IMG/VR virus record: IMGVR_UViG_2541047343_000006
Location: 62,001-126,000 of that record
Strand: one strand, 5' to 3'
DNA: 64,000 bases
Source: an uncultured virus (IMG/VR IMGVR_UViG_2541047343_000006)
Taxonomy: Duplodnaviria > Heunggongvirae > Uroviricota > Caudoviricetes
This document shows positions 1 to 45,128 of the stretch, in pieces. Position 1 is the stretch's first letter; the number at the start of each line of letters is the position of its first letter. Under the pieces are notes generated by a model. That model was not told the origin of the DNA. It searched no databases and saw only the letters and a program-made list of their open reading frames with translations. A program made the position numbers and the translations under genes.

Positions 1-249
1 TAGTTTATATATTTCAAATATAGTATCATTTTCTTGGCTTAATAATATTCCTAACGCTTTTTTGAAATAATATTCTTGAATTATACTTCCTTCACTAGCA
101 ATTTTTGAATTATAAAAAATACTTTTTTTAGCTAAATTCATGTACTTTAATTTATCTTTATTATAGTACTTATCTATAAAACTGTAACACTTACTATTTA
201 TTGATAATGCTTCTGCCAAAAACGGTATTAAGTTAAGTTCTCGCTTCAT
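1..249 (-). CDS. Hypothetical protein, N-terminal part (runs off the window)
   Basis: My translation from ATG 249 after an AGAGAGG RBS: MKRELNLIPFLAEALSINSKCYSFIDKYY...EGSIIQEYYFKKALGILL; open to position 1. Confidence 0.75.
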   Translation of the reverse strand, partial: MKRELNLIPFLAEALSINSKCYSFIDKYYNKDKLKYMNLAKKSIFYNSKIASEGSIIQEYYFKKALGILLSQENDTIFEIYKL

Positions 250-290
250 AGAAACCTCTCTTCTTTAAAAAAACAAAATATTTTCATCAA

Positions 291-737
291 TTATACATCC
301 CTATCATGTTTATATTTTCTTATAGTAATTTCTTTTTTTTCTCTATCAAAGCTTATAATCACATATCTTTGTTCCTCTGGTTCTTTTTTCACACCTATAT
401 CTTTTATCCAAGAAGTAGGTATTGTGATTCGATTTGTAAATGATGATTTTTTTCCTTCTGAGTTTCTATATCCACTTGTATTATAAATCACCTTAGCTTT
501 TCTTTCTCTGTTCTCTTCTCTTGGTGTTATAAAATCATTTTTATATTTTCTTACAATAATTTCTTTTTTTTCTTTATCAAAACTTATAATTACATATCTT
601 TGTGCTTCTGGTTTTTCTTTAATACCCATAGCTATTATCCACAAATTAGGTATTGTAATTCGATTTGTTATTGTTGATTTTCCACTTAAATTATAAATTA
701 CCTTAGCTTTTCTCTCTCTGTCATCAAACCTTAACAT
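291..737 (-). CDS. Tandem-domain AbrB/SpoVT-like DNA-binding protein
   Basis: Two copies of RERKAKVIYN...TNRITIPxxWI..G.K..PE.QRYVIISFD.EKKEI..RKYK; paralog of 10628..10816. Confidence 0.65.
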   Translation of the reverse strand: MLRFDDRERKAKVIYNLSGKSTITNRITIPNLWIIAMGIKEKPEAQRYVIISFDKEKKEIIVRKYKNDFITPREENRERKAKVIYNTSGYRNSEGKKSSFTNRITIPTSWIKDIGVKKEPEEQRYVIISFDREKKEITIRKYKHDRDV

Positions 738-811
738 TACAAAATTCCTTTCAATTTTATATTCATATTCAATTTTAGTAAGTTATTTTTTTAAACAGCT
801 ACTTTATTGTA

Positions 812-1483
812 TTATAAAATACATAATTCCTTATGATCACTTCTCCAATATGGAGGTATTATTGGAAGTTCTTTCAGTGAATTTTCTTTAGCTATTGGTT
901 TTTCTAACTTCATATATTCCCTAAATGGTATAGGTCGCATTAGTTTTCCATCTTTAAATATAGAATAATTATCATCACAATCTAAAAACTCATATTTCAA
1001 AATTTCACCATAACCTTGTGAATTTTTCTTTCCTACAAAATTTATATTATTTTTAAGTAATTTTTTAATTTTCTCTTTATCTCCTCTGACATAAAATGTA
1101 ATTGTTTTATAACTTTTTAAATTAATTTGATTGTTATATGCTTTAAAATGTCCAGATGCAATACTTACTCGTGGCTTTCCTCTTTTTTTTTCTTTTACAA
1201 AATCAATATCTTTAGAGTTAAATTGTTTTGACCAAAATGATACAAATTCTTCATTATTTCCTATAGCTTTAGATGTACAATATACTCCCATATTTTTATC
1301 TAATACTAAATCTAATGATTTTTCTATTTCTTTTTTTGTTCCATACTTCTTTTTACCACTATAATACTTTTCTGAAAAACATTCTTTACAAATAGCTGCA
1401 CTAATTATACTATCTAAAATTATATCGTCTATAGCTGCAACAGGGGAACTCATATACATAATTACTTTAAAATTAGTAAACAA
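812..1483 (-). CDS. csf3: Type IV Cas5-like RAMP (Csf3)
   Basis: N-terminal SSPV..LDS, G-rich loop VGKKNSQGYG, RPIP and C-terminal PPYW; follows csf2. Confidence 0.8.
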   Translation of the reverse strand: MFTNFKVIMYMSSPVAAIDDIILDSIISAAICKECFSEKYYSGKKKYGTKKEIEKSLDLVLDKNMGVYCTSKAIGNNEEFVSFWSKQFNSKDIDFVKEKKRGKPRVSIASGHFKAYNNQINLKSYKTITFYVRGDKEKIKKLLKNNINFVGKKNSQGYGEILKYEFLDCDDNYSIFKDGKLMRPIPFREYMKLEKPIAKENSLKELPIIPPYWRSDHKELCIL

Positions 1484-1502
1484 ATATTTTCACCTCAATT
1501 CA

Positions 1503-2330
1503 TTATTTTAATTTACTTTCTATTACAGTAATCCAATTTAAAATTGATTCTTTATTTTCTTTTAGATAATCATAATATAATTTAGAAGATACCATATGTT
1601 CTTTATCGTATTCTATTTTAACTTCACCATACCCAATATTTGTCTTACCACCAATAAAAGGCTTTCTTTCAAACAACTCTAACATTGCAGTAACACAACT
1701 TTTTTCAATCTCATTCATATTTTCTAAATAAATATGTGATATAAGTTCTGAACCTGCACAAAGAGATTGCATTTCATATTTCATCTGTATTTTTTCATTA
1801 TTTTCACCAATAATTTCAATATTGCTATTTCCAGTCTTACTACTTTTTAATGAATCTGTTCTTACATGATATACCTCTTCTAACATTTCATAAAAAGACA
1901 TGTTACTTTCTATACCTGTATAATCAACTAATTCTTTACAAATAGGTTTAAATATTCCAATTTTTAGTTTTCCCTCATACATAGTATTACCAATAATAGT
2001 CCCTAATACAGAAACTGGTGGGCACATGTCTCTTGCATTCTTCATTTCTTCCATATCACAATATTCTTTACCACTAACTAATGAACCCCCAGAAAATAAA
2101 GAATGATATAATTTAGCTGTTATTTTTAGACTATCTACATTCTCTAAATAATCTTTCATTATTAATCGTCTTAGAATCCCTCTAAATGAATTTGCTGAAT
2201 AAACTGGTATATATATGTATTCATCATTGTATTTAAATTTAAGCATTCTTGTTATTTGCATATTTCCAATATTTTCATCATCAAAATGCATTAAACTAGA
2301 TAATAATTTCAGCTTTATATTAATTTTCAT
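1503..2330 (-). CDS. csf2: Type IV Cas7-like RAMP backbone (Csf2)
   Basis: IPVYSANSFRGILRR, LFSGGSL, PPVSVLG, GKLKIG and C-terminal IGGKTNIGYG G-loop. Confidence 0.85.
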   Translation of the reverse strand: MKINIKLKLLSSLMHFDDENIGNMQITRMLKFKYNDEYIYIPVYSANSFRGILRRLIMKDYLENVDSLKITAKLYHSLFSGGSLVSGKEYCDMEEMKNARDMCPPVSVLGTIIGNTMYEGKLKIGIFKPICKELVDYTGIESNMSFYEMLEEVYHVRTDSLKSSKTGNSNIEIIGENNEKIQMKYEMQSLCAGSELISHIYLENMNEIEKSCVTAMLELFERKPFIGGKTNIGYGEVKIEYDKEHMVSSKLYYDYLKENKESILNWITVIESKLK

Positions 2331-2718
2331 AAATTGTGTCTCCTTCTTTATCTTGATTTTCTTCTTTATCTTCTTTATGTTCTTTTTCTCTTTCTCTTTT
2401 CAGCCTCATTTCTAAAAATATTATCTGAGGTTGTTCCCTAAAAAGTTTTAATATCTCATATTTTGTTTCTTCATCCATATTAGAAATTTCATTTATCTTT
2501 GGAAGTGAAAGACTTTTTATTTGTAATTTAGAACACAATTTTTCTACAAATATTTCATATTTACTCGTTATCATTGATGAGCGTTTAATATTATTAATAA
2601 AATTTTCTGATATTTTTATATAATTTTTTTCATCCCAATTTATTCTTATCCATATTTCATTTATTGTTTCAACTGCTAATTCTTTTATATCATAGTAATT
2701 TTTTTTAGTCATTATCAT
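2320..2718 (-). CDS. Putative Cas11-like small subunit
   Basis: 132-aa helical protein that overlaps both csf1 and csf2, the position cas11 occupies in type IV-B. Confidence 0.6.
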   Translation of the reverse strand: MIMTKKNYYDIKELAVETINEIWIRINWDEKNYIKISENFINNIKRSSMITSKYEIFVEKLCSKLQIKSLSLPKINEISNMDEETKYEILKLFREQPQIIFLEMRLKREREKEHKEDKEENQDKEGDTIYEN

Positions 2719-3443
2719 TTCACCTTCTTATTTTTTATTGATTTATTATTTAACTTTTCTAGCTTTTTCTTCTCTTTTAAGTATTCTTTTTTCTTTGCAG
2801 AATCCATAATATATATTAATAGTTCAAATTGATATGTTCTTCTATATTTTTTAAATAGATTCTCATATTCATTAAACTTATTAATACCAAGTTGCTCTAT
2901 AAATAGTACACTATAATTACCAGTTCTTAACTCTTCTTTTGAAAAATGTAAATATGCTTCATTTAATTTTTGATACAAATATTTCATCTTATCAACATTA
3001 AATAAATATTCTTTATCTTCTTCTCTAATATAAAAATTGTTTATATCATAATTTACTCTACATCTAAAAGAATTATGTTTTTTAAAACTTCTTGTTACTC
3101 CAACTACAAATGGTGTTGATATAAATTCATTTAAATTAAACAAATAAGTTGCTAAATCATCCTTTTTAAGATAAATAATCTTTGACTCACAAGCTATAAA
3201 GTTGCTTTTCCTTAATCTTGCTTCTTTCATACAAAAAGAACATTCTTTACAAACAAATTTTGAATTTATATCTTTGCATACATCAAAATTTGTAAACTTT
3301 GCACCTATAATCTCATTTACGAGACAACCCTCATTTATATTAGAACCACAGACAAAACATTTTTCATTTATGTTCTTTATACATTCAATATCTGGTGAAC
3401 CGGCAGCCTTATATATTATTTCAGAATTTCTCACATTATTCAC
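2715..3443 (-). CDS. csf1: Type IV Cas8-like large subunit (Csf1)
   Basis: Zn finger CFVCG...FTNFD...CKECSFC and a KKH motif; first gene of the RAMP cassette. Confidence 0.75.
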   Translation of the reverse strand: MNNVRNSEIIYKAAGSPDIECIKNINEKCFVCGSNINEGCLVNEIIGAKFTNFDVCKDINSKFVCKECSFCMKEARLRKSNFIACESKIIYLKKDDLATYLFNLNEFISTPFVVGVTRSFKKHNSFRCRVNYDINNFYIREEDKEYLFNVDKMKYLYQKLNEAYLHFSKEELRTGNYSVLFIEQLGINKFNEYENLFKKYRRTYQFELLIYIMDSAKKKEYLKEKKKLEKLNNKSIKNKKVK

Positions 3444-3484
3444 TATCCAATCGTTAAATTTATTTAAACTGTAAAGATTCAGTA

Positions 3485-4057
3485 TTACTCTATTTCAATA
3501 AATCTAATATCATCATCAATTTTATATTGAGTTATTCCTTCGCCACAATCTAATTCTTCTATTTCCTCAACAAAATAATTTGCTCCAAGAGAGTTAAATT
3601 CGCCAACAAATATTCCTCTTTCTAATAATAAATTTATTGGATTTTCTATCTTGTTATTTGAGCATAATATATATTTAATGATATATTCGTTAGGTACAAC
3701 TCTATGGATAACATGATTAACCAGATATACATAATTACATTTATTTTCTTTTTTTATATCATTTACCCACTTATTAAAATCTTTAAAGAAATCTAAATTT
3801 ATATTAAATGGAAAATCAAAATTTTCTAGTTCATTCTCAACACAAGTCTCAATCTTAAATACATTATTTATTCCAAAATTTCTACCGACTAAACAATATT
3901 CTCCTTCACCTTCCCAATTTATATCCAATTCTTCCTCTAAACCTTCTTTTATTAAATACTCTTTCATTTTATTTATAAGTTCTTTTTCACTAGTTGCACT
4001 TACTAAACATTCGTAATTTTCTTTATTACATTTTTTTATAAATTCATATAAGTTCAT
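3485..4057 (-). CDS. Acidic hypothetical protein, probably first gene of the csf operon
   Basis: 190 aa with GGGGGA RBS; upstream TTGCCA-17-TATACT promoter-like sequence near 4097-4125. Confidence 0.7.
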   Translation of the reverse strand: MNLYEFIKKCNKENYECLVSATSEKELINKMKEYLIKEGLEEELDINWEGEGEYCLVGRNFGINNVFKIETCVENELENFDFPFNINLDFFKDFNKWVNDIKKENKCNYVYLVNHVIHRVVPNEYIIKYILCSNNKIENPINLLLERGIFVGEFNSLGANYFVEEIEELDCGEGITQYKIDDDIRFIEIE

Positions 4058-4308
4058 TTTTATTCCCCCTTAAATAATATCTTTCTTTATATTTATAGTA
4101 TAACATATACGTTACGATTTGGCAATGGTTTTATTGCAAAAATATTTAATTTAATTTTATATCTTTACTTACCTTTTATGTTAGGTATATTTTATACAAT
4201 TAATAAAGTTATTTTAAATAATAATCAAATTAGTATTGACAATACCATAAAAAATGTTATATATTTCTAATATAAGTTAGAAATATATAACAAAAGGAGA
4301 GTATAACA

Positions 4309-10909: not shown

Positions 10910-11143
10910 CTATTTAATTGATTTTGCTGTTTCATTTTGCACTATATCAAGCTTAGTATACAATGAGGTTTGACCATTTTCTAGGTCTTCAATTCTAAAA
11001 TCAATACGACTAAAACATTCTAAAAGTCCCTCAACATTAGATTTTATTTTATCTTGTGTATAATCAAATTCGTCAAGCTTGTCATTTAAAATTTTAATAC
11101 TTTCCTGTATTTCTCGTAGCAATTCTAATGTTTTCTCATCCAT
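10910..11143 (-). CDS. Coiled-coil protein (MDEK.LELL family)
   Basis: Heptad pattern; one of four paralogs. Confidence 0.7.
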   Translation of the reverse strand: MDEKTLELLREIQESIKILNDKLDEFDYTQDKIKSNVEGLLECFSRIDFRIEDLENGQTSLYTKLDIVQNETAKSIK

Positions 11144-11154
11144 TTTATCTACTC

Positions 11155-11466
11155 CTATTTAATTGATTTTAACTTTGCTATTTCATTCCAATTTTTAGAT
11201 GTAGCTATTTCTACAAAGTTCATGTCATTTTTTAAAGTGTCTATTTTTTCTCCAACTTCTGTTATGCCTTCCATATTTCTAGCAACTTGATTATAAGTTA
11301 AGTCTAGTTTCTTTTTAATTTCTTCTTGACCTTCTTTTAAATCACTAAGTTGGTTTTCAATCCCATCAAAACGACCATCCATACTATCTAGTCTATTTTC
11401 GATTCTGTCAAATCTAGTATCCATTTTTTGTAATAATTCTAATATTTTTTCATCCATGCCGTTCAC
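11155..11466 (-). CDS. Coiled-coil protein (MDEK.LELL family)
   Basis: RFD..E.RLD heptads; C-terminal NW.EIAKLKSIK. Confidence 0.75.
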   Translation of the reverse strand: MNGMDEKILELLQKMDTRFDRIENRLDSMDGRFDGIENQLSDLKEGQEEIKKKLDLTYNQVARNMEGITEVGEKIDTLKNDMNFVEIATSKNWNEIAKLKSIK

Positions 11467-11905
11467 ACTCCTATTTTATTATTATATCATAATTTAAGTG
11501 TTGTATTCTAACACTTACTAAAATAATCTAATAAATAGTTTAAATTATACTAGTAAATATTAGATAGTTTATAACCATGTAGGTGTCAAGCAGTACAAAC
11601 TATAATTTTAATGCTCAATCTTTAGTACTTTTTATAACGCAGTACCTCACAACTGCTATGTCATATTAAATTGTATTGAGTTCCATTATAGAAGCAACTA
11701 AGTTGATACCTCAATTTTTTATAGGCTTTAATTGGAAACCTTTATTAATTTTATTTACTTATTTACTTAGTGTTGGGAACACCTCACCAACTGGTATGAC
11801 TAATTCATTTTTGTAGTTAAAAAATGAAGAAAAAACTATGTGTAATATTTGTGTTGTGTGCCTTTCACCATTCACACCATTTAAAAGGTCAACTTAAAGG
11901 TAATA

Positions 11906-11959
11906 ATTTTTTAATAGTAGTTTAATATTTTTTAATAGTAGTTTAATATTTTTTAATAG
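11906..11959. repeat. 21-bp tandem repeat, about 2.5 copies
   Basis: Unit TTTTTTAATAGTAGTTTAATA. Confidence 0.85.
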
Positions 11960-12134
11960 AATCCTTTAAGATATTAGCTTTAGAGTTTTAAGAAGGTTCT
12001 TTGCCTGTTACTTCATTGAGAGGTGGCTTAGTGTTTTCTTGTTCTCCCTTGCTATGATTTAATTATACGACATTATCCCATTTTTGACAAGTCATTTTTG
12101 AGATTTATTTTTAAAAAATAATGGAATTAATCGA

Positions 12135-12323
12135 CTAATCAAGTAATTCCAATGGGTTTACGTCTAAAATTTTATATATTTTCTCTAATTCACTTACAGT
12201 AAAATCGGTTTTACCTTGTTCTTTTCTATTATATGTTTTGTAATTTATATCTATTAAAAGAGAGAACTCTAATTGTGTATATCCTTTTTGTTCTCTAAAT
12301 TCTTTTAATTTATCAAGTTTCAA
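12135..12323 (-). CDS. Small XRE/Cro HTH protein
   Basis: LKEFREQKGYTQ...YNRKEQGKTDFT. Confidence 0.85.
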   Translation of the reverse strand: MKLDKLKEFREQKGYTQLEFSLLIDINYKTYNRKEQGKTDFTVSELEKIYKILDVNPLELLD

Positions 12324-12509
12324 TTTTTATTCACTCCTTTTTTATTCTATATGTTATATAATATTTTAATAATAGAGTTTTGTCAAATATGAGATTTACA
12401 TAATGAATAGAGATGAAAGAACAATAAAGCGAGTGTATTAAAACATACTTAGAATAGATTTAAATAGCTTGTATAATATGTTGTTGTAATAAAATAGACT
12501 AGCTACAAA

Positions 12510-12716
12510 CTAGTCTATTTTTCTATGTGGTTCTAATAATTCATTTGCATTTATATCTAAGTAATATAATATTTGTTCTAGTTCTTCAACTGTAAAATCT
12601 CTTTGCCCATTTTCCTTATAAGCATAAGCTCTTATACTCATACCCATTTTAGTACTTAATGTTTGTTGAGTATAACCCTTTTGTTCTCTTAACTCTTTTA
12701 ACTTACTAAGCTTCAT
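12510..12716 (-). CDS. Small XRE/Cro HTH protein
   Basis: LKELREQKGYTQ...YAYKENGQRDFT. Confidence 0.85.
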   Translation of the reverse strand: MKLSKLKELREQKGYTQQTLSTKMGMSIRAYAYKENGQRDFTVEELEQILYYLDINANELLEPHRKID

Positions 12717-12799
12717 TATATCACCTCTTGTAATTTTAATATTGGGTGTGTTACAATATACCTATAATATACTATTTACAGGTATATTGTAGCTTGTTA

Positions 12800-12955
12800 T
12801 TAGTTATTAATCATATCTATTAATATGTATAACAAGCCTATAAATGAGATTAAAGCAAAAAGTATTTGTTCGGCTGATTTAATCATCTGAACTACGAGCT
12901 TTTCAAGTTGGTGGCACAACTCGATTAGCTCTTTTATTTTGTCTTTGGTTATCAT
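12800..12955 (-). CDS. 51-aa small membrane peptide (not in the ORF track)
   Basis: MITKDKIKELIELCHQLEKLVVQMIKSAEQILFALISFIGLLYILIDMINN; GGGGTG RBS. Confidence 0.6.
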   Translation of the reverse strand: MITKDKIKELIELCHQLEKLVVQMIKSAEQILFALISFIGLLYILIDMINN

Positions 12956-13341
12956 TTAAGACACCCCAATATTAAATTATATAAGGTAGTATTATATTAA
13001 GTTCTACCTTAATTATATTATAATGCTACAAGCAACAATGTTCAAGTAAAATTTTACTTATAATTCAAAGCTTTTAAGTTTGAGAATTTCCTTCTAGTTA
13101 TTTATATTCGATTTTAAAAACTAAAGGTACAAACATAAGGCAATCACATTACAATACGCTTAGAATAGATTTAAATAGCTTGTATAATATGTTATATTGT
13201 GTAGAATGTATTATAATATAACCATATCAAAAAAAATCCGACAACCTGCATACTTATATAGATATATATATCAATATGCGAGTCATCGGAAAAATTAAAA
13301 ATATAAAAGTACTTAACAAAATGTCAAGTACTTTTTATGTA

Positions 13342-13719
13342 TTATTGTAATTTTATTTTTATTTCTTCTAATTGTTCCATATTTCTAGCGACTTGGTCGG
13401 TTGCTCCATTTAGCTTTCTATTAATCTTAATTACTCTAGTTTCTATTGCATTTAACTTAATGTCAACCACATCAAAGTTATCTTTAATAGAAGTCATTTC
13501 CTCTGCTGTTGAAATAGATTGATTATATAGTATATCTTGTTTCTTTTCAATACTGTCAAGCCTATTTTCTATACTATCAAATCGCTTGTCCATGTTATCA
13601 AGTCTGTTGTTAGTTTCAACCTGTCCAATTTTTAAATCATTGATGTCCTGTTTCATTTCAGTAATATTACTATCCATTTTCTGTAATAATTCTAATATCT
13701 TTTCATCCATTAATACCAC
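13342..13719 (-). CDS. Coiled-coil protein (MDEK.LELL family)
   Basis: Heptads; paralog of 11155..11466. Confidence 0.75.
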   Translation of the reverse strand: MVLMDEKILELLQKMDSNITEMKQDINDLKIGQVETNNRLDNMDKRFDSIENRLDSIEKKQDILYNQSISTAEEMTSIKDNFDVVDIKLNAIETRVIKINRKLNGATDQVARNMEQLEEIKIKLQ

Positions 13720-13723
13720 ACTC

Positions 13724-14047
13724 CTACTTAATTGATTTAAGCTTTGCTATGTCTGTCCAATTACTAGATGTAACTATCTCAACTTTGTTTAAATCCTTTT
13801 TAATATCTGTTGTATCCTCTACCAATTTAGAAGTATGTTTAATTACTGCATCTAATGTGTTTCTATTAACCTTAACATCTGACTTAATTTCTGTAATGTC
13901 TTGTTTCATATCTGTAATGTCATTTTGCATTTTGTTAAGTCTGTTATCCACATCATTAAATCTAACGTCTATATCCTTTTTCATTTCTGTAATACTGCTT
14001 TGCATCTCTTGTAATAACTCTAGTATCTTTTCATGCATCACGACCAC
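13724..14047 (-). CDS. Coiled-coil protein (MDEK.LELL family)
   Basis: C-terminal NWTDIAKLKSIK shared with 11155..11466. Confidence 0.75.
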   Translation of the reverse strand: MVVMHEKILELLQEMQSSITEMKKDIDVRFNDVDNRLNKMQNDITDMKQDITEIKSDVKVNRNTLDAVIKHTSKLVEDTTDIKKDLNKVEIVTSSNWTDIAKLKSIK

Positions 14048-17726: not shown

Positions 17727-17865
17727 AGTCTAATTTTTACACCCTCCTATTTTTTTATTTTAAACTTATTATAATTTATAATTCCCATTTTTTCAAGGTA
17801 ATTTTTCCCTTTACATAAACAAATAAATACAAAAACAAATATATTAAAGACTGTTTATATTAATA

Positions 17866-18125
17866 TACCATCTCATGGTACGCCCATAGCATGGGATATC
17901 GAAAAATTCGATGTACCACGAGATGGTATATCGAAAGAATCGCTATATTTCAACGTTTTTTCGATTTTTGCCTCGATATACCACGAGATGGTACATCGAA
18001 AAATTAAAATATCTGAAATAATTTAAAAATTATATAGTTATGCACAGATAAAAATGCAAATTGTTAATAAAATTGCAACTTATCAACATGTTATCAACAA
18101 CTTACTAACAGCTTATCAACAGGGA
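17866..18125. other. Putative replication origin (iterons and DnaA boxes)
   Basis: Two copies of CGATRTACCACGAGATGGTAYATCGAAA plus an inverted partial copy; TTATGCACA at 18038; TTATCAACA at 18080, 18091 and 18113. Confidence 0.7.
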
Positions 18126-20289: not shown

Positions 20290-21489
20290 ATGGAAAAAAA
20301 ATATTTAAATGAGATATTTAGAAACAAAAAGTTTAATAAAAATAGCTTAATAATAAGTCCTACTGGTTCAGGTAAGACACATTATATTATTAATTATTTA
20401 TGTAAGAATAAAAAAGTATTATATTTATGTGATAATAGTAATTTAGAAGAACAAATATTATTAGAAAATAACACAAGGAGCTTAAAGAATAATTTACCTA
20501 AACATGGTTTTGAAAAAACAGATATAACTGTGATGACATATAAAGCATTTGGATACAAAATTAAATATGATTTAGACAACAAATACATAAATCAATTTGA
20601 ATTAATAATAGCAGATGAAATACATAATCTTATTGATTATCAAACTTTTTCTAATGATGCAGATTTGTCTCATGCAATAAGAGCATTGATGAAAAAATAT
20701 AATAAAACAATAATATTAATGTTTACCGCTACACCTTATTATATAAATGATTTAAAAAGCAGATATGATGATATAGGTAAATATTTTGATACAATCGATT
20801 ACTCAACTAGTAAAGAAATTAAAAGATATATTAATAAAAGAGAATCATATATAAATCATATTTCTCAAATACAATTTCAATTAGATGAGTATAGACAATC
20901 ATTTGAATATGCAGATATGAAATGTCTTATATATACAACAAGTATAAGTAACATGCAATTCATAGAACAAATGTGTATAGATAAAGGTTTAAATCCAATT
21001 TGTATATGGTCTAATAATAATAAAGATTATGAAATGACAGAACAACAATTAGAAGTAAGAAAGTATTTAATAGAAAATGGAGAATTAAAATTTCCATATA
21101 ATGTACTAATAATTAATAGAGCTACAGAAACAGGAGTCAACATATATGATAAAGACATGCAATTGGTCATAGTTAATACTACAAATTTGACTCAACAAGT
21201 TCAGGCTAGAGGTAGAGTAAGACATGATGTTGACTTATTAATAGTTAGGACTGATGATGATAAAAAAGTAGATGTAATTACAATAAAAGATGAATATTTA
21301 AGTCAATGGTTATTAAAAGTAGATTTAGAAAATTTAATAAAAGAATATGGATTAAAAGACAATAAAAAAAGAATAATGTCAGTTAATAAATTTATTAATT
21401 ATTTAGAAAAACATGATTATAAAATTAAAAAAACTATTAAAAGATTAGATGGGAAAAGAATTACTATGTATAAAATAAATAAAATATAA
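20290..21489 (+). CDS. SF2 (DExH) helicase
   Basis: SPTGSGKT, DEIH, TAT, TGVN and QARGRVRH. Confidence 0.9.
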   Translation: MEKKYLNEIFRNKKFNKNSLIISPTGSGKTHYIINYLCKNKKVLYLCDNSNLEEQILLENNTRSLKNNLPKHGFEKTDITVMTYKAFGYKIKYDLDNKYINQFELIIADEIHNLIDYQTFSNDADLSHAIRALMKKYNKTIILMFTATPYYINDLKSRYDDIGKYFDTIDYSTSKEIKRYINKRESYINHISQIQFQLDEYRQSFEYADMKCLIYTTSISNMQFIEQMCIDKGLNPICIWSNNNKDYEMTEQQLEVRKYLIENGELKFPYNVLIINRATETGVNIYDKDMQLVIVNTTNLTQQVQARGRVRHDVDLLIVRTDDDKKVDVITIKDEYLSQWLLKVDLENLIKEYGLKDNKKRIMSVNKFINYLEKHDYKIKKTIKRLDGKRITMYKINKI

Positions 21490-21881
21490 CTGTACAAAAA
21501 AATGGGACTTTTTAGTTGAGGAGTCCCAAAATTTTGTACAGTTATATTTTATAACATAGAATAGTAAATCACAAGGCTTTAGCCGAAGTGATGCGGTAGC
21601 TATTACTAACGCCTTCACTTCGTTCAGTTGTTATCCTCAGCTAAAGCTTCGGATTTACTATTTTTAATTTAATACATATGGGTTAAAAACCCCTTCATAT
21701 GGTGACATATGGTAGCAAACCTAGAATATGCTAAAAGTTAATACAATTAGCAGAGATAGCTCATTTGAGAAGCTCTGGTGACTAATAATAGGCATCTTAT
21801 ATTGTAAGATGATGATGTCACTAAAAATATTAAACTACAACGTGAAATTTGTGGGATAATTACTCACCATTTCAGAACTGG

Positions 21882-21920
21882 AAGAAAGCACATGTCGTGA
21901 GATAGCAGTAAGTCTTTCTT
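21882..21920 (+). repeat. 39-bp structured leader motif, copy 2
   Basis: Identical to 20221-20259. Confidence 0.85.
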
Positions 21921-21956
21921 CCTTTTAAATAAATACTAAAAGGGAGATTTGATAAA

Positions 21957-22844
21957 ATGAATGGTGAAAAACTTATAGAAAATAAAGAATTAAGAGATAG
22001 AAATATAGATAGAGTAGATGTATTGGAACATGTGAAAGAGATATTAACTTTAGCAAATACAGATTTTAGTACAGTAGAACTTGTTTCTGAGTATTATGAA
22101 GTTAAAGAAGCTACAGTTCAAGAATGCATAAGATTAAACAAAGAGGAGCTAAAGAATGATGGACTAAAAAAATATAAGAAAAATGAGATAATATCTATAT
22201 TTGAACGAAATCCAATTAATTTGGAAAACGTAAAAAATGAAAGAACAAAATCAATAGTAACATTTAAAAACAATGAAAGTGTATCTATAAATAATACAGG
22301 ATTAATATTAATACCAAAAAGAGCAATTCTCAGAATAGGTATGTTACTTAGAGATTCAGAAGTTGCTAAAGAAGTTAGAACTAGATTACTAGATATTATA
22401 CACGATGCAGAAGAACAAACTGAAATTGTAAATGATGTAATAGAAGAAATTAGAACTGAACAAAATATAAAAGAAGATATGCTTGAAGCGATAATTTCTG
22501 GCGACCATAATAAATTATCTGTACTACAGACAGAATTAATAGGGTTGAAGAATAAAAGAATATCTCATTTAGAAGATATTATAACTAATTCAGTCACTAT
22601 AACAGAAAGTAAAGCTATTATTAATAAATGTGTTAGGACAATAGCAGTTAAAAAATTTAATTGTATGTTTGGTAAAGCATGGGATGAATTTTATAGATTT
22701 ATTAACTATAAACTTGGCATTAATGTTAGAAATCGAAAAGGTAAAGGATTAGCTAGATTTTCAGATGAAGAAATCTTAAAGATGGAGAAGATAGCGAAAA
22801 GCTGGTTAGAGGAAAATGATATAGATTTTAAATTGGTAATATAA
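21957..22844 (+). CDS. Phage antirepressor-like DNA-binding protein
   Basis: RAILRIGMLLRDSEVAKEVR motif, common in Firmicutes phage regulators. Confidence 0.6.
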   Translation: MNGEKLIENKELRDRNIDRVDVLEHVKEILTLANTDFSTVELVSEYYEVKEATVQECIRLNKEELKNDGLKKYKKNEIISIFERNPINLENVKNERTKSIVTFKNNESVSINNTGLILIPKRAILRIGMLLRDSEVAKEVRTRLLDIIHDAEEQTEIVNDVIEEIRTEQNIKEDMLEAIISGDHNKLSVLQTELIGLKNKRISHLEDIITNSVTITESKAIINKCVRTIAVKKFNCMFGKAWDEFYRFINYKLGINVRNRKGKGLARFSDEEILKMEKIAKSWLEENDIDFKLVI

Positions 22845-39113: not shown

Positions 39114-39337
39114 TATAAAAGATTTCCTATGCACATTTTCTTAAAATAAATAAAATTTAAAAATATATTGTAAAAGATGAAAAAGTATGATACTATTTAA
39201 AAATAGAGAATTAATATGCTAATCATATTTTTAATGTATAAATTATTGTGTTGATTCCAACAACTAAATAAAATATAAAATAACAATTAAAAATATGAAA
39301 AGTATTGGTTAAATTTTATAAAAAGGGGGATGTGTAT

Positions 39338-40143
39338 ATGGAAAATGAAATGAAAGTAGAAGTCTTTAAAAATGAGCAGTTTGGTGAAATTAGAGTGTTA
39401 GAAAAAGGTGGAGAACCTTGGTTTTTGGGAAAAGATGTAGCTGAGATGTTAGGATATAAAAATCTTAGTGATGCTTTAAGAAAACATGTTGATGAAGATG
39501 ATAAGATGCAAATCGCATTTTACGATTTGCAAAAACTGGGTTTTGGAGATATTGGAACAAAAGGAACTCCAATTATTAATGAAAGTGGATTATATAGTTT
39601 AATCTTAAGCTCTAAATTGGTAGAAGCTAAAAAGTTCAAAAGATGGGTGACAAATGAAGTATTACCCACAATAAGGAAACATGGAGCATATCTGACAGAT
39701 GATAAGATAGAGGAAATACTATCAAATCCAGATACAATTATAAAACTGGCTACAGAACTAAAAGAAAAGAGAGAAAAAATCAAACAATTAGAATCAGAAG
39801 TTGTCCATAAAGAAGATGTGATAATAGGATTAGTTGAAGATATAAGTTTAGCAGAGAAAAGACAGAGAATTAATCAAATAGTTAAATACAAGGTAGAGCC
39901 TAAGAATTTCAGTAAAAGATGGAATTTATTATATGACGAATTTGAGAAAAAATATCATTTGATTTGAAGAGAAGAATTAATAATTGTGATATCAAACCTA
40001 AAATTAAGAATAAGATAGACTATATAGATAGAGAAATGAGTATGATTCCTCAATTGTACGAGATAGCATGTAAGCTGTTTGAAAATGATGTGGAAGAGTT
40101 GAAGAATGAATGGATTTCTGTTATAGAAGAAAAAGTTTGTTAG
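39338..40143 (+). pseudogene. BRO-N antirepressor, frameshifted near 39960
   Basis: BRO-N ORF stops at 39967; the -1 frame continues DLKRRINN...LYEIACKLFE...VC* to 40143. Confidence 0.7.
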
Positions 40144-40272
40144 ATTTATATGTGATAAATAGTCACTTCCAAAGTAGCATTGATAATTAAATAATACGAC
40201 TAGAGAGATTAGTCTAATATCATTGTTATTCTAATCTCTTAAACTAAATAAAATTAAAAAGGAGATTGATAT

Positions 40273-41088
40273 ATGAATAATTTAATGGTGTTTGAAGGGA
40301 AAGAAGTTGAAGTATTTGAGTTTGAAGGAAAAATTTTATTTAATCCAAAGCATGTAGCTAAATGCTTGGAATTAAGTGAAAGTGCAACAAGAAATCATTT
40401 ATCTAAAATGAATGGTAAACAAGCTATATTATTAAGAAATTCAGATGTCCTTATCTCGGACATCCGAAAATTAAATAATGCAGGAGAGAAATTTCTTACA
40501 GAAAGTGGAGTATTTAAGTTAATATTCACATCAAGAAAAGAAGAGGCTGAGAGATTTCAAGATTGGGTAACAGATGAGGTGTTGCCAACCATTCGTAAGC
40601 ATGGTGGATACTTAACGGATTTAAAAATAGAAGAAATACTATCTAACCCAGACACCATAATTAAATTAGCAACTGACTTAAAGGAAGAGAGAGCGAAGAG
40701 AAAGAGTTTAGAAGAAACGAATAATAAACAACAACAAATAATAGGAGAACTCAAACCAAAGGCAGATTATACAGACTTAATACTTAGAAACAAAGGATTA
40801 GTAACTATAACTCAAATAGCGAAAGATTATGGCATGAGTGGTAAAGCTATGAATAAGAGGTTAAATGAATTGGGAATACAATTTAAGCAGAGTGGTCAAT
40901 GGTTATTGTATAGCGATTACCAAGCTAAAGGATATACTCATTCGGAGACCATTGATATTGTAAGAGCTGATGGAACATCTGATATTAAAATGAATACTAA
41001 GTGGACTCAAAAAGGAAGATTAATGATATATAAGAAATTAAAATCTATTGGTATACTACCCGTTATAGAGCTTAGTGAAGTTTGCTAG
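40273..41088 (+). CDS. BRO-N + KilA-C (ANT) antirepressor
   Basis: KPKADY.D.IL...ITQIAKDYGMS...WTQKGR. Confidence 0.9.
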   Translation: MNNLMVFEGKEVEVFEFEGKILFNPKHVAKCLELSESATRNHLSKMNGKQAILLRNSDVLISDIRKLNNAGEKFLTESGVFKLIFTSRKEEAERFQDWVTDEVLPTIRKHGGYLTDLKIEEILSNPDTIIKLATDLKEERAKRKSLEETNNKQQQIIGELKPKADYTDLILRNKGLVTITQIAKDYGMSGKAMNKRLNELGIQFKQSGQWLLYSDYQAKGYTHSETIDIVRADGTSDIKMNTKWTQKGRLMIYKKLKSIGILPVIELSEVC

Positions 41089-41485: not shown

Positions 41486-42190
41486 ATGTTTAAAATAATT
41501 ATATGTGAAGATGAAGAAATTCAAAGAAAAATAATGTTTGAATATATAGAGATTTTCTTTAAAAAAGATATTGAATATGAAATTATTTGTTTTAATAATG
41601 GAGAAGAATTAATAAATAATTATATTAAAGCAGATATAATTTTTATGGACATAGGACTTAAAGGTATGAATGGCTTAGAAGCAGCAAAAGAAATAAGAAA
41701 AATAGATAAGGATATTGTTATAATATTTGCAACAGCTTTCGTATCGTATGCTACAGAAGGTTATGATGTTAGAGCTTTTAGCTATTTACTAAAACCTATA
41801 ACATATAATTCTTTTGAAAAGATAATGTCAAAATATTTCATTGAAAAGTCTGAAGAAAAGAAATTAATAGAATTTAAAATAAAAGATGAAACAAAAGTAA
41901 TAAAATTAGAAGAGATAATATGTATAGAGAGTTTAGGTAAATATGTAAAGATTCATACTAAGACTGAAAGTTTTTTTACTGCAATTAAAATTAAAAGGAT
42001 TGAAGAGAAGCTTTCTAGTAAAATATTCTTTCGATGTCATAAAAGTTTTTTAATAAATTTATTAGAAGTTAGAAATTATAATAGGAAAGAAGTCATTTTA
42101 GGTGATAGAAAAATAAAAGCTACAATTTCTTATAGAAAATATAACAATTTTAAAAAGAGTCTCACTTCTTTTCTATGTGATAGATTTTGA
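41486..42190 (+). CDS. LytTR-family response regulator (orphan)
   Basis: Receiver ICEDE, FMDI, GYDV.AFSYLLKP; LytTR FFRCHKSFLIN. Confidence 0.9.
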   Translation: MFKIIICEDEEIQRKIMFEYIEIFFKKDIEYEIICFNNGEELINNYIKADIIFMDIGLKGMNGLEAAKEIRKIDKDIVIIFATAFVSYATEGYDVRAFSYLLKPITYNSFEKIMSKYFIEKSEEKKLIEFKIKDETKVIKLEEIICIESLGKYVKIHTKTESFFTAIKIKRIEEKLSSKIFFRCHKSFLINLLEVRNYNRKEVILGDRKIKATISYRKYNNFKKSLTSFLCDRF

Positions 42191-42240
42191 ATAAAATAAA
42201 TTATTTATAATTATAAAATGAATAAAATTATTCTTGAAAT

Positions 42241-42270
42241 TGCGTTTATACCGTTTTCCTATGCGTTCAT
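42241..42270 (+). promoter_or_regulatory. LytTR-type direct-repeat box
   Basis: TGCGTTTAT-N12-TGCGTTCAT. Confidence 0.6.
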
Positions 42271-42416
42271 TCCTTTTCACTTGATTTTCTACTGAAAAGA
42301 AATTATTATATAATTAAAAGATACGTATCCTATTTAAAAGAGAAGCTTATCAAAAATAAATTATTAAAGATAAGTTTCGAGATTATTTAGTATTTTTAAG
42401 TACATTTTATAGGGGG

Positions 42417-42785
42417 ATGACGTATATGGAAAATTTTAAAAAAGATTTTGTGAAAAGTATGGGTATAATTAAATCATCTGAAATATTTCAAGGAAATATA
42501 TTAGAGAAGAATGAGCAAAGACTTGAGATGATTGAATATACGAAGCGAGATATTAATTTACTGACTAAAATTAAACATCTTTTTGAAAATATAAATGAAT
42601 GTAATTTACAAGATGCACAATATATAATAGAAAATGAATTGTTTTATGAAAGAGTTTCAATTAATACAATAAATAAATATATAAATAAATTTGGTGATAT
42701 AAATGATTTTAAATATGCATATAGATTGAAAGCAAAAAACGGGTTTAGGAGGACTATGGATTATTTAGTTAGAAAAAAGCATTAA
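42417..42785 (+). CDS. Hypothetical protein (paralog of 7451 and 45143)
   Basis: YIIENELFYE...LKAKNGFRRTMDY. Confidence 0.75.
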   Translation: MTYMENFKKDFVKSMGIIKSSEIFQGNILEKNEQRLEMIEYTKRDINLLTKIKHLFENINECNLQDAQYIIENELFYERVSINTINKYINKFGDINDFKYAYRLKAKNGFRRTMDYLVRKKH

Positions 42786-42944
42786 GATAATTAAATTTGT
42801 ATATATTAGAGGCAATCTAAATTGATTGTCTTTTTTTATTAAATAATTTATGTTGCAGTTATTCCAATGATGACAGAGGTATGACAAGGATAATTATGTT
42901 TATATATTAGAAATAAAAATAAGCATCTCTAGTTGTTGAGATAC

Positions 42945-43781
42945 TTATCTTAGATTGTTTTTATCTTGTATTAGTTTATCCACTAGATTGGAGATTAGGT
43001 CTAGGCAATCATCGTTTAGTAGGTCTATTTTACTAGATAGAGAAGGCTTGTCTTTTTTATTATTTAAATGTTCTTTTTTTATAAGGTCATCAAATTCATC
43101 AAATGGTAAAATGGCATTGTCGTCTATAAATCTTATTTTTTTAAAATGGTAAGGGGTTTGTTCTTTATTATTTTTATTACGTATTTTTAATATTTTATTT
43201 AAGTCTTTCAAAGGTATGGTTACTTCAAGTATATCTCTACAATTTTTCCTATTAGGATAATCTAAAATTTTGTCTAAATCTGACAATGCTTTTTCAGGAT
43301 ATCCAAGGAAAGTATAAAGATTTCCTCTTTCTAGTAGAGCATTTTTATATTTAGAATTTGTCTCTATCACTTTAGTATAGTCAGCAATTGCATTTTCATA
43401 ATCTCCAAGTATAGCATACATAAAGGCTCTTTGATAATAAGATTCTAAAGCATGGTGAGGAGCTTCTATAATCTCTGATGTATAAAAATCTATTTTTTCT
43501 TTTATATAAGCATATTTCTCTTCTGTTAGAGGGATATCATTTCCATCTGTGATGTTTAACTCATGAATTTCATCAAGACTAAATTTATGAAGATTCATTA
43601 TTATATCTGTGGAAGTATCCAAAGCTGTTGCTAATTTTTCAAGTATATCTAAATTTGGAACTCTTTCTTCTCTTTCATAGTTCCCTAATGCTACTCTTGA
43701 TATCCCAGCTTTCTCAGCTAATTGTTCTTGAGTCATTCTTCTATCTTTTCTAAATGTTTTTATATTCTCTCCGATTCCCAT
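42945..43781 (-). CDS. XRE HTH + TPR regulator
   Basis: MTQEQLAEKAGISRVALGNYERE; TPRs YYQRA...GDYENAIADYTKVIE and ERGNLY..LG..EKALSDL. Confidence 0.85.
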   Translation of the reverse strand: MGIGENIKTFRKDRRMTQEQLAEKAGISRVALGNYEREERVPNLDILEKLATALDTSTDIIMNLHKFSLDEIHELNITDGNDIPLTEEKYAYIKEKIDFYTSEIIEAPHHALESYYQRAFMYAILGDYENAIADYTKVIETNSKYKNALLERGNLYTFLGYPEKALSDLDKILDYPNRKNCRDILEVTIPLKDLNKILKIRNKNNKEQTPYHFKKIRFIDDNAILPFDEFDDLIKKEHLNNKKDKPSLSSKIDLLNDDCLDLISNLVDKLIQDKNNLR

Positions 43782-44263: not shown

Positions 44264-44381
44264 AAAGTAGCCCACATACCGACCAAAGTAACGATGGACT
44301 ACTTTATACAAGAAGTTATCTTCTATGAAATATTCTATCATAGAGAGGTACTTCTTACAATCAATTTGGGGAGGATTTTGT

Positions 44382-45128
44382 ATGATGAATAATTTACAAA
44401 TATTTAAAAATAATGATTTTGGAGAAATAAGAACAATAGAGATAGATAATGAGGTTTGGTTTGTAGGCAAAGACGTAGCTATAGCATTAGGTTATGCTAA
44501 TACAAGAGAAGCGTTGAAGACTCATATTGATAGTGAAGATATAGCTGATGTCGTAATTCACGACGGCAGCCAAAATAGAAACATGAAAATAACAAATGAA
44601 AGTGGATTGTATTCTTTGATATTTGGTAGTAAATTACCAACTGCTAAAAAATTTAAAAATTGGGTTACTAAAGAAGTCTTACCAAGTATAAGAAAAACTG
44701 GTTCATATGATATAAATAATTTAGAAGAAAGAGTAGCTCCAATGATATTTAATGGTATACTTGCTGGGATTAAACAAGTTGCAATAGAAAACGATAAGAA
44801 AATAGATACTAGATTTAATCAAATAGAAGATAAATTAGATAAGAAATATAAGAAACAAGATAAGCAATTTCAAGAAATGAAAAATATGATAGGATTCAAA
44901 GCTAAGAACACACGAATGTTGTCAAAATTGCTAAAGATAAAGCTATCGGAAATAAAAGGATATAATGTAAATGCTTATAACTATGATTATAGAACTGTAG
45001 TGACAAGATTATTTTCAATATATAATGTAACTAAGTGGGAAGATATACCAGTTACTAAATTCAATGAGGTTCATGCCATGATAGATGGAATAGAGAGTAT
45101 GGATGATGTATATACTTGGAATCATTAG
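44382..45128 (+). CDS. BRO-N antirepressor-like protein
   Basis: FGEIRT...WFVGKDVA..LGY...NESGLYSLI; C terminus paralogous to 7802..8560. Confidence 0.9.
   Translation: MMNNLQIFKNNDFGEIRTIEIDNEVWFVGKDVAIALGYANTREALKTHIDSEDIADVVIHDGSQNRNMKITNESGLYSLIFGSKLPTAKKFKNWVTKEVLPSIRKTGSYDINNLEERVAPMIFNGILAGIKQVAIENDKKIDTRFNQIEDKLDKKYKKQDKQFQEMKNMIGFKAKNTRMLSKLLKIKLSEIKGYNVNAYNYDYRTVVTRLFSIYNVTKWEDIPVTKFNEVHAMIDGIESMDDVYTWNH

Follow-up and report, generated by a model that had tools for sequence, protein, structure and literature searches.

Type IV-B loci, one subtype of the CRISPR-Cas systems, have no array of their own, and their association with a cysH-like gene has been called “nearly invariant” (PMC7038947), “ubiquitous” (PMC8175902) and almost constant (PMC7937560), or is put at “most” loci (PMC13676074). 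The CysH-like partner is seen as key to the subtype (PMC7038947, PMC8175902, PMC7937560), the function and full architecture of which were still stated to be unclear in a 2026 paper (PMC13676074). What, then, is a type IV-B effector that has no such partner, and what could it do? The question is raised by a csf1-cas11-csf2-csf3 cassette at positions 812-3443 of the window, by which we mean the whole 64,000-nucleotide stretch of DNA analysed, bases 62001-126000 of the 134,221-bp record of an uncultured virus (IMG/VR IMGVR_UViG_2541047343_000006). An earlier note on the window had described an array-less, IV-B-like phage effector without cysH and had taken the neighbouring genes as its functional context; the description stands, the context does not. 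The enzyme-less IV-B variant is real and intact, and it reveals no new system.

To judge from its backbone genes, which match phiCD211/phiCDIF1296T-like phages and ~130-kb Clostridioides difficile plasmids, the carrier is a large plasmid-like siphophage of C. difficile, a phiCD211-like phage-plasmid of the group treated in PMC5786514 and PMC10778935. The genome encodes a terminase, portal, 2002-amino-acid (aa) tape measure, tail fibres and lysis genes, together with a ParM-type partition gene, a replication initiator and several tyrosine recombinases.

A complete effector cassette

The cassette consists of four genes:

2715-3443, minus strand: csf1, 242 aa, Cas8-like large subunit, GTG start, isoelectric point (pI) 9.2
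2320-2718, minus strand: cas11, 132 aa, small subunit with a Lys/Glu-rich C-terminal tail
1503-2330, minus strand: csf2, 275 aa, Cas7 backbone subunit
812-1483, minus strand: csf3, 223 aa, Cas5 subunit, TTG start

The csf1 and cas11 genes overlap by 4 nt and cas11 and csf2 by 11 nt. The gap between csf2 and csf3 is 19 nt, which leaves no room for a gene in the slot where relatives have an enzyme.

All four products match the PADLOC type IV models (Csf1_0_IV, 1.9e-29; Cas11_1_IV, 2.2e-15; Csf2_0_IV, 1.9e-54; Csf3_0_IV, 5.4e-42). The NCBIfam equivalog models for csf1, csf2 and csf3 also match, but under their cut-offs (csf1, TIGR03114, 5e-13), and the Pfam RAMPs family matches Csf2 with 24.2 bits (gathering cut-off 22.1 bits). 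Solved PDB chains were searched with profiles made from the window proteins together with related sequences. The top PDB sequence match of the Csf2 profile is the IV-C Cas7c chain 11fs_C (7e-28), and the IV-B Csf2 chain 7jhy_e is matched at 7e-23. The Cas11 profile finds 11fs_N (5.9e-7) and 7jhy_h (4.5e-3), the Csf3 profile 8rc3_F (2.5e-10) and 7xfz_B (7e-10), and the Csf1 profile the IV-A Csf1 chains 9n3y_A and 7xfz_A (both ~2e-5). An AlphaFold2 model of the window Csf2 (predicted local distance difference test, pLDDT, 83.5) is placed by Foldseek on the type IV Cas7 chains 8rc3_D and 7jhy_a with E ~1.5e-13; a RAMP fold, the lack of which would have refuted the earlier note, is thus predicted. 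Csf1 contains a CxxC...CxxC zinc ribbon, the cysteines of which (C29, C32, C65 and C68) are conserved in the family alignment, and none of the four window proteins departs from the family alignments at an invariant position.

The gene order that the note had read from the letters, with a small helical protein between csf1 and csf2, is thus borne out by the open reading frames (ORFs), PADLOC and the PDB profile matches, and of the searches that it had proposed, those with hidden Markov models (HMMs) matched all four subunits and the structure search matched Csf2. That the locus is a type IV-B-like effector with Csf1, Cas11, Csf2 and Csf3 is practically certain. No claim is made about a putative catalytic aspartate in Csf2, since Asp42 falls in an unaligned insertion of the 7jhy profile alignment.

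Absence of partner genes from the closed genome

The virus record is rated 100% complete, and its last 395 nt repeat the first 393 nt at 98% identity, as expected of a closed circle; no gene is therefore hidden beyond its ends. A six-frame search of the 134,221-bp genome with PF01507 (3'-phosphoadenosine 5'-phosphosulfate, PAPS, reductase) gave no candidates, and 14 of 14 control genomes were matched. The SGGxDS motif is found in none of the 311 ORFs of at least 50 aa in the whole genome. Cas6, Cas1, Cas2 and CysH were detected neither by Pfam in the 93 ORFs outside the window nor by PADLOC in 129 ORFs genome-wide, and HMMs made from the CasCysH, TGT-like (see below), Cas6b and IbrA proteins of relatives found nothing at E<=10 in six frames of the whole genome. 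Within the cassette, Pfam found no HD domain.

The same is true of arrays. The repeat finder called no CRISPR array anywhere in the genome, and it does detect the array of phiCD211, which is annotated as CRISPR in that phage's record. The phiCD211 repeat, which we take to be I-B-like, has no copy with up to 7 mismatches of 29 genome-wide, bar one chance match within a coding region. Hidden arrays and solitary repeats were looked for as well: a three-copy scan gave none, and a two-copy scan gave only a palindrome pair (17908-17934 and 17973-17999) that is read as an origin or operator.

The lack of an array, cas6 and cas1/cas2 that had been noticed in the 64 kb thus extends to the whole 134,221-bp record, and the PF01507, motif and HMM scans of the closed genome find no cysH either in the window or to its left. 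The scan of the remaining genome for cysH, cas6 and arrays that the note had recommended came back empty, and with it falls the note's second refuting case, a cysH or array just left of the window. Its statement that there is no DinG calls for a nuance: no DinG helicase was called, but a type IV DinG model matches a 399-aa helicase at 20290-21489, ~17 kb from the cassette, weakly and over residues 16-70 only (5.6e-8). This match is read as a generic helicase motif in a protein of the replication module. Rfam assigns no family to the noncoding RNA candidates at 11.5-12.0 kb and 23.7-24.0 kb, which had been suggested as cargo, and nothing connects them with the cassette. What the region at 11.5-13.3 kb contains is small ORFs, promoter-like repeats and a 21-bp tandem repeat.

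The slot between csf2 and csf3 in related loci

A large protein collection contains 38 clusters homologous to Csf2 (E<=1e-5). Three of these are 64-82% identical to the window protein, two of them named C. difficile, and the remaining clusters are at most 53% identical. Scans of viral, species-representative and metagenome DNA gave no locus above ~53% Csf2 identity, phage and plasmid collections contained no close homologue, and of 401 sampled Peptostreptococcales genomes only 2 gave a match to Csf2. In all, 71 related loci were fetched: 50 from viral contigs, 3 from species-representative genomes, 16 from metagenome contigs and 2 from the Peptostreptococcales search. They were annotated with HMMs built in this analysis and grouped at 95% Csf2 identity into 41 lineages including the window. 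Two lineages (L058 and L074) were left out because their loci are truncated and uninformative. The slot content of the 39 informative lineages is as follows:

CysH-like gene only (PF01507; 1.3e-21 in L010), between csf2 and csf3 or directly after csf3: 31 of 39 lineages
~220-aa gene only (tRNA-guanine transglycosylase, TGT, fold predicted): 5 of 39
Either one (CysH-like in L012; ~220-aa gene in L018, L057 and L062): 1 of 39
Unrelated 154-aa gene (L044): 1 of 39
Nothing (window): 1 of 39

A gene is therefore found in or beside the slot in 38 of the 39 lineages, and the window is the sole exception. In a maximum-likelihood tree of Csf2 (54 rows, midpoint-rooted), the window and three close sequences, C. 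difficile ones among them, form a group with 100/100 support, which lies in a polytomy with CysH-bearing lineages inside a larger, mostly CysH-bearing group of weak support (89/64). Since all deeper Csf2 branches are CysH-bearing, the tree is most simply read as a loss, on the branch of the window, of the CysH-like or TGT-like enzyme gene that related phage cassettes keep.

The empty slot in C. difficile

Is the empty slot a peculiarity of one genome? In six C. difficile assemblies, the NCBI accession numbers of the Csf2 and Csf3 homologues, which are 64-84% (Csf2) and 69-88% (Csf3) identical to the window proteins, directly adjoin:

HDF4164011 (Csf2) and HDF4164012 (Csf3)
HGS9757423 (Csf2) and HGS9757424 (Csf3)
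HGS9095662 (Csf2) and HGS9095663 (Csf3)
HBG2405027 (Csf2) and HBG2405028 (Csf3)
MCH4299903 (Csf2) and MCH4299902 (Csf3)
MGO0987463 (Csf2) and MGO0987464 (Csf3), locus tags ACTPEW_16135 and ACTPEW_16140

Consecutive accessions mean adjacent coding sequences and so no gene between csf2 and csf3, even at 64-84% Csf2 identity. Judged by this numbering, the slot looks to be empty across the C. difficile clade.

Closer to the window, the cassette is uninterrupted in three more isolate-sized runs, each from a different study, as their contigs show. Ten substitutions are listed within the four genes of these isolates, five synonymous and five conservative replacements, and divergence in the cassette is only ~0.3%. 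In cas11, the part coding for the Lys/Glu tail is a 9-bp tandem repeat (2343-2398; Tandem Repeats Finder) whose length differs among isolates. The two indels seen, +9 nt at 2370 and +6 nt at 2384, both sit in this repeat and are in frame, and there is no frameshift or stop in the four genomes. Apart from two runs that may be the source, a further 17 runs from 14 studies, dated 2014-2025, contain at least 81% of the words sampled from 250-4300. No RNA run was listed among these carriers, and one RNA run that was compared with the cassette gave only partial reads below 95% identity at two spots, as from a strain without the element.

Placement among type IV systems

The effector hallmarks of type IV, Csf2, Csf3 and Csf1, are all present (PADLOC and PDB profiles, with Foldseek for Csf2). 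As in IV-B, there is a separate cas11 between csf1 and csf2, and there is no DinG/RecD helicase (the weak partial DinG match apart), Cas10-like HD subunit, Cas6, adaptation module or array. The adjacent cysH-like gene expected of IV-B is missing. Because no such gene is found by PF01507 or the CasCysH HMM, and the 19-bp gap could not hold one, the locus is a variant of IV-B and not a canonical member. Csf2 groups among CysH-bearing phage cassettes in a tree built without IV-A, IV-C and IV-D references, and its plasmid matches include loci of Rhodococcus, Mycobacterium and haloarchaea, where IV-B is common.

Neither IV-A nor IV-C describes the locus. The complex of IV-C (Cas7c/Cas11c/Cas5c, PDB 11fs; PMC13676074) is the best sequence match of the Csf2 and Cas11 profiles, but in IV-C the large subunit is Cas10-like and bears an HD nuclease, whereas the large subunit of the window is a 242-aa Csf1-type zinc-ribbon protein that matches Csf1 models only. 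The Csf1 and Csf3 profiles match IV-A chains, and IV-A, with its nuclease-free interference resembling CRISPR interference (CRISPRi), offers a working model for a type IV complex that only binds. However, IV-A requires DinG, Cas6 and its own array and works without Cas11 (PMC7038947, PMC13676074), whereas the window has Cas11 and none of CasDinG, Csf5/Cas6 and an array.

A solved counterpart is the IV-B system on a megaplasmid of Mycobacterium sp. JS623 (PDB 7JHY; PMC7937560), which has the same csf1, cas11, csf2 and csf3 and likewise lacks an array, Cas6, adaptation genes and a helicase. The window Csf2 model fits its chain 7jhy_a with a template-modelling score (TMt) of 0.75 at ~20% identity. 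The JS623 system belongs to an actinobacterial plasmid, whereas the window belongs to a Firmicute phage-plasmid without a cysH-like gene. Closer in sequence are IV-B cassettes of Clostridia phages and prophages (L010-L080, among them an Alkalithermobacter prophage, L054, and Clostridium lapidicellarium, L055). These have the same order, csf1-cas11-csf2-...-csf3, Csf2 proteins 45-53% identical to that of the window, tailed-phage genomes and no arrays, but their slot is filled by an enzyme gene, and some of them also have Cas6b, a Csf3 with a fused HD domain or an IbrA/ParB-like pair; none of these occurs in the window.

Virus-borne IV-B has already been published (PMC7038947, PMC10848311). The atypical IV-B of Fuxivirus, a virus of Bathyarchaeia, is also a virus-encoded effector and has been proposed to serve in counter-defence or in conflicts between mobile elements (PMC10848311), but it keeps a CysH-like gene beside csf3 and a two-repeat mini-array, and the window has neither. 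No publication was found that ties IV-B to C. difficile or to a transglycosylase; the supplement of PMC7038947 and Garneau et al. 2018, which lay outside the scope of the search, could list the locus.

Partner enzymes and additions in related cassettes

In 6 of the 39 lineages the CysH-like gene is substituted by the ~220-aa gene, located as follows (related loci are given by L numbers):

L014, 8858-9604: ~220-aa gene
L018, 781-1506: ~220-aa gene
L032, 8810-9469: ~220-aa gene
L034, 8106-8801: ~220-aa gene
L036, 2282-2947: ~220-aa gene
L047, 9541-10227: ~220-aa gene
L057, 8795-9520: ~220-aa gene

This family is small: clustering at 50% identity leaves 99 representatives in a set of 1.84 billion proteins. 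Its conserved motifs are ILDSGAF, APD, LGAGW and DSxDSIAYY, and it has no Pfam or PADLOC match. Its model (pLDDT 88; predicted template-modelling score, pTM, 0.86) is a beta/alpha barrel. In the PDB, the model is closest to tRNA-guanine transglycosylases (TMq 0.51-0.55, E from 2.5e-5) and to Cap10 (9ntn_A, TMq 0.61), a TGT-like protein of CBASS (cyclic-oligonucleotide-based anti-phage signalling system). In the Atlas, the nearest named cluster has DpdA in 17% of its members. A bridge from the family to TGT/DpdA through Pfam was rejected, since Pfam TGT is touched by 1 of 43 family members, at 0.0093. On the model and the Atlas lead, the protein is predicted to have the TGT fold and is not called a member of the TGT family itself. 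On the Csf2 tree it stands in for the CysH-like gene in five separate positions, once between Csf2 proteins more than 95% identical. PP-loop and TGT-fold enzyme classes act together in 7-deazaguanine chemistry. The alternation of a PP-loop and a TGT-fold enzyme in one slot is thus a biochemical lead for the role of the partner enzyme.

A second addition is a Cas6b-type gene directly after csf3, present in 5 of the 39 lineages:

L012, 7593-8312: Cas6b-type gene
L014, 10869-11612: Cas6b-type gene
L015, 8056-8754: Cas6b-type gene
L021, 11841-12566: Cas6b-type gene
L055, 11609-12334: Cas6b-type gene

In L022 a 77-aa fragment of it is found at 10990-11223. PADLOC Cas6b matches the two genes that were scanned, at 3.9e-38 and 1.4e-81. 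No array was found in the fetched DNA of the Cas6b-bearing lineages, and the gene suggests that repeat-derived RNA may be processed for these array-less phage IV-B complexes.

Other elaborations occur singly or in a few loci. Csf3 is extended to 385-402 aa in L012 (6434-7642), L017 (3004-4161) and L060 (3295-4452). In L012, the only one of the three that was scanned, the added N-terminal part is an HD domain (Pfam HD, 4.5e-7), and L022 has a separate HD gene within the cassette. An IbrA-like gene (PAPS_reduct plus DUF3440) splits the csf cassette between the CysH-like gene and csf3 in L010 (9885-11874; the same as L054), L023 (3606-5173), L065 and L066, and it is adjoined by a ParB-like gene in L010/L054 and L023, the loci on which the ParB model was run. 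In sibling phage-plasmids without a csf cassette, short repeat arrays are found in the corresponding accessory region (L008, 3208-3623; L009, 5329-5620).

What the complex could do

Since the complex comes with neither a nuclease nor a helicase or modifying enzyme, binding is the only way in which it can act. The cassette would be an intact and selectively maintained minimal IV-B effector, built of Csf1 (large subunit), Cas11, Csf2 as the backbone and Csf3 as the cap, in a lineage that would have lost the slot enzyme, whether CysH-like or TGT-like. We infer that it would be loaded with RNA, that it would assemble on CRISPR RNAs (crRNAs) produced by the type I-B system of the host, and that the consequence would be either a non-cutting occupation of the complementary nucleic acid of rival elements or the tying up of the crRNAs. 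Borrowed guides are proposed because the phage encodes neither an array nor Cas6, and C. difficile has an active type I-B system (PMC4556805).

A binding-only complex that borrows host I-B crRNAs is the reading that we favour, tentatively, on account of the Cas6b genes of relatives, the I-B system of the host and the arrays of siblings in the corresponding accessory region. The Cas6b genes after csf3 imply repeat-derived RNA as the cargo in close relatives. A more specific form of the idea, to be taken as rather unlikely, is that host I-B crRNAs cut by the host Cas6b are loaded on the enzyme-free complex and that spacer memory is thereby redirected to the benefit of the phage. If that were true, the benefit would come through non-cutting binding of rival phages and plasmids or through draining of the crRNA pool able to target the phage-plasmid, and the CysH-like and TGT-like enzymes of relatives would be optional output modules on a borrowed-guide platform.

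Several points weigh against borrowed guides on an intact, maintained complex. In the one IV-B complex that has been solved, the RNA was heterogeneous and not from CRISPR (PMC7937560), IV-B occurrence is negatively correlated with other CRISPR systems in hosts (PMC7038947), and Cas6b is absent from 34 of the 39 related lineages. A crRNA sponge has already been published as an idea and was judged unlikely by its authors (PMC7038947). A CysH-like gene could possibly lie after csf3 or elsewhere in the genomes of the C. difficile relatives. The 5:5 ratio of synonymous to nonsynonymous changes is too small a sample to prove selection, with 96 differences beyond those listed, and at ~0.3% divergence the integrity of the cassette in isolates may reflect recent origin. 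Its expression and bound RNA are putative.

Other explanations depart from the favoured one in what the complex binds or in whether it works at all. In one of them, the Csf2/Cas11 backbone would be a sequence-independent filament that coats RNAs of fixed length and protects or sequesters them, a role outside CRISPR for which no enzyme would be needed. The heterogeneous RNA in the Mycobacterium complex agrees with this, as do the conservation of all four subunits and the lack of an array, Cas6 or repeat-like unit in the genome. However, conserved Csf3 (Cas5) and Csf1 suggest specific recognition of an RNA end and of a target; these two subunits were not resolved in the solved structure, which its authors doubt to be the functional complex (PMC7937560), and the Cas6b of relatives points to repeat-derived RNA. 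We consider the filament unlikely. Another possibility is a dedicated anti-CRISPR sponge that would soak up host I-B crRNAs and shield the phage-plasmid from the many arrays of its host without any targeting. The idea was raised in PMC7038947 and in the earlier note, it gains indirect support from the Cas6b genes after csf3 in 5 of the 39 lineages, the I-B system of the host species is active (PMC4556805), and the phage has no array of its own, in contrast to its siblings. The authors of the idea found it too costly compared with small anti-CRISPR (Acr) proteins (PMC7038947), and the CysH-like and TGT-like enzymes of relatives argue for an active output over passive soaking, so that a pure sponge seems improbable.

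The lost enzyme could also mean that the cassette has lost its function and is decaying, its ORFs still open only because the loss is recent. A gene is retained in or beside the slot in 38 of 39 related lineages, cysH is called nearly invariant or ubiquitous (PMC7038947, PMC8175902), and the divergence between isolates is tiny, all of which would fit a remnant. Against this, csf2 and csf3 are adjacent at 64-84% Csf2 identity, which makes the loss old relative to that divergence, all family-invariant residues are retained, and neither a frameshift nor a stop is found in four genomes, both indels being multiples of three; decay is thus also a doubtful explanation, much as the sponge is. Finally, the enzyme might be supplied in trans by the host or another resident element, and the complex would then work as an ordinary IV-B system. 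Accessory genes are highly mobile in the clade, with CysH-like and TGT-like genes beside near-identical Csf2 proteins (L012 versus L018 and L057), and further genes for nucleic-acid modification are present in the phage, among them a DndB-like one (genome positions 21547-22686). But CasCysH is reported to co-diversify with its Csf partners, which speaks against a generic host enzyme (PMC7038947), the HMMs found nothing CysH-like or TGT-like in six frames of the phage, and the Csf2 query matched just 2 of the 401 sampled Peptostreptococcales genomes. Supply in trans is very unlikely.

With a four-subunit lineage that has no partner enzyme, what the backbone does can be told apart from what the enzyme does. 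It is a natural control for IV-B, on an element present in many isolates of a host that can be cultivated and whose type I-B system is active (PMC4556805), and its close relatives with a CysH-like gene, with a TGT-like gene and with Cas6b are matched comparisons.

The insertion and its neighbours

The cassette is an accessory unit that was inserted between two backbone genes of the phage-plasmid. The neighbouring features are:

4097-4125, minus strand: promoter-like site upstream of the acidic gene, TTGCCA-17-TATACT with TG (consensus scan)
3485-4057, minus strand: acidic backbone gene, 190 aa, pI 4.5, at the head of the leftward transcription unit
291-737, minus strand: tandem AbrB/MazE-like gene, 148 aa, two ~74-aa repeats, pI 9.9; phrog_2329
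1-249, minus strand: N-terminus of a 474-aa backbone gene; phrog_11092, 1e-35; right edge of the insertion

A C. difficile phage-plasmid from strain CD161 (NZ_CP029155) has a 187-aa gene with 59% identity to the acidic 190-aa gene, separated by just 96 bp, with no csf genes between, from a homologue of the 474-aa gene; such homologues occur in both phiCD211 and CD161. Since the two genes adjoin in CD161, the window has an insertion of ~3.2 kb between two backbone genes, made up of the four csf genes and the tandem AbrB-like gene.

None of the neighbours has turned out to be a partner of the effector. The acidic gene, which the earlier note had placed in the functional context of the cassette, is rejected as a partner because it is a backbone gene that in NZ_CP029155 is present without csf genes beside it. 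The tandem AbrB-like gene, taken as context in the same way, has weak MazE_antitoxin and PRK08577 matches and no detectable homologue beside the cassette's C. difficile relatives. It is not at the corresponding position in CD161 or phiCD211, and a search of 5.8 billion protein clusters returned its own cluster and one weak match, nothing else. Single-domain AbrB-like relatives are located elsewhere in phiCD211-like phages, and the AbrB HMM matches in nine related loci are helix-turn-helix (HTH)-AbrB regulators on the opposite strand in one phage group. On these matches, the gene was rejected as a conserved partner; it is specific to the lineage of the window, where it came in with the cassette. 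The 474-aa gene was considered as a cryptic CysH and likewise rejected: the absence of a PP-loop (SGGxDS), noted for its first part, holds for the full ORF, which matches no Pfam family and has a backbone homologue in phiCD211.

The consensus scan found no minus-strand terminator-like site between the promoter-like site at 4097-4125 and position 1. The acidic gene, csf1, cas11, csf2, csf3, the AbrB-like gene and the 474-aa gene may form one operon, a prediction to be read with the scan's count of promoter-like sites, which is not above that expected from shuffled sequence.

Other features of the phage-plasmid

Upstream of the replication initiator gene, the stretch at 17860-18125 holds the two 27-nt palindromes mentioned above (17908-17934 and 17973-17999; 0 expected by chance), a third palindrome, TACCA-N5-TGGTA, and four 11-bp iterons of the CAACTTATCAA type (18076-18121). 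It looks like an origin or operator region. At 10910-14047, four phrog_5553 paralogues flank a 1.9-kb stretch with only small ORFs (51-68 aa). In this stretch a promoter-like sequence of 59 nt is directly repeated (at 12424 and 13135), and a tandem repeat of 21 bp lies at 11901-11959.

Among the structural genes is a gene for a 1075-aa type IIG restriction-methyltransferase (45739-48966; PADLOC, 3.5e-101), with anti-repressor paralogues as its flanking genes (39305-41088 and 44325-45128). Between the tape-measure ORFs at 49584-51062 and 51732-57740, Rfam places a group I intron (51378-51628; RF00028, 103 bits), and the tape measure gene is probably split by it.

Outside the window, at genome positions, the phage encodes the DndB-like protein already mentioned (21547-22686), an RtcB RNA ligase (41890-43143), a PTH2-like peptidyl-tRNA hydrolase (44389-44652) and a Tpt1 RNA 2'-phosphotransferase (54840-55394). 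Together these resemble an RNA-repair set, perhaps one directed against tRNA-targeting defences.

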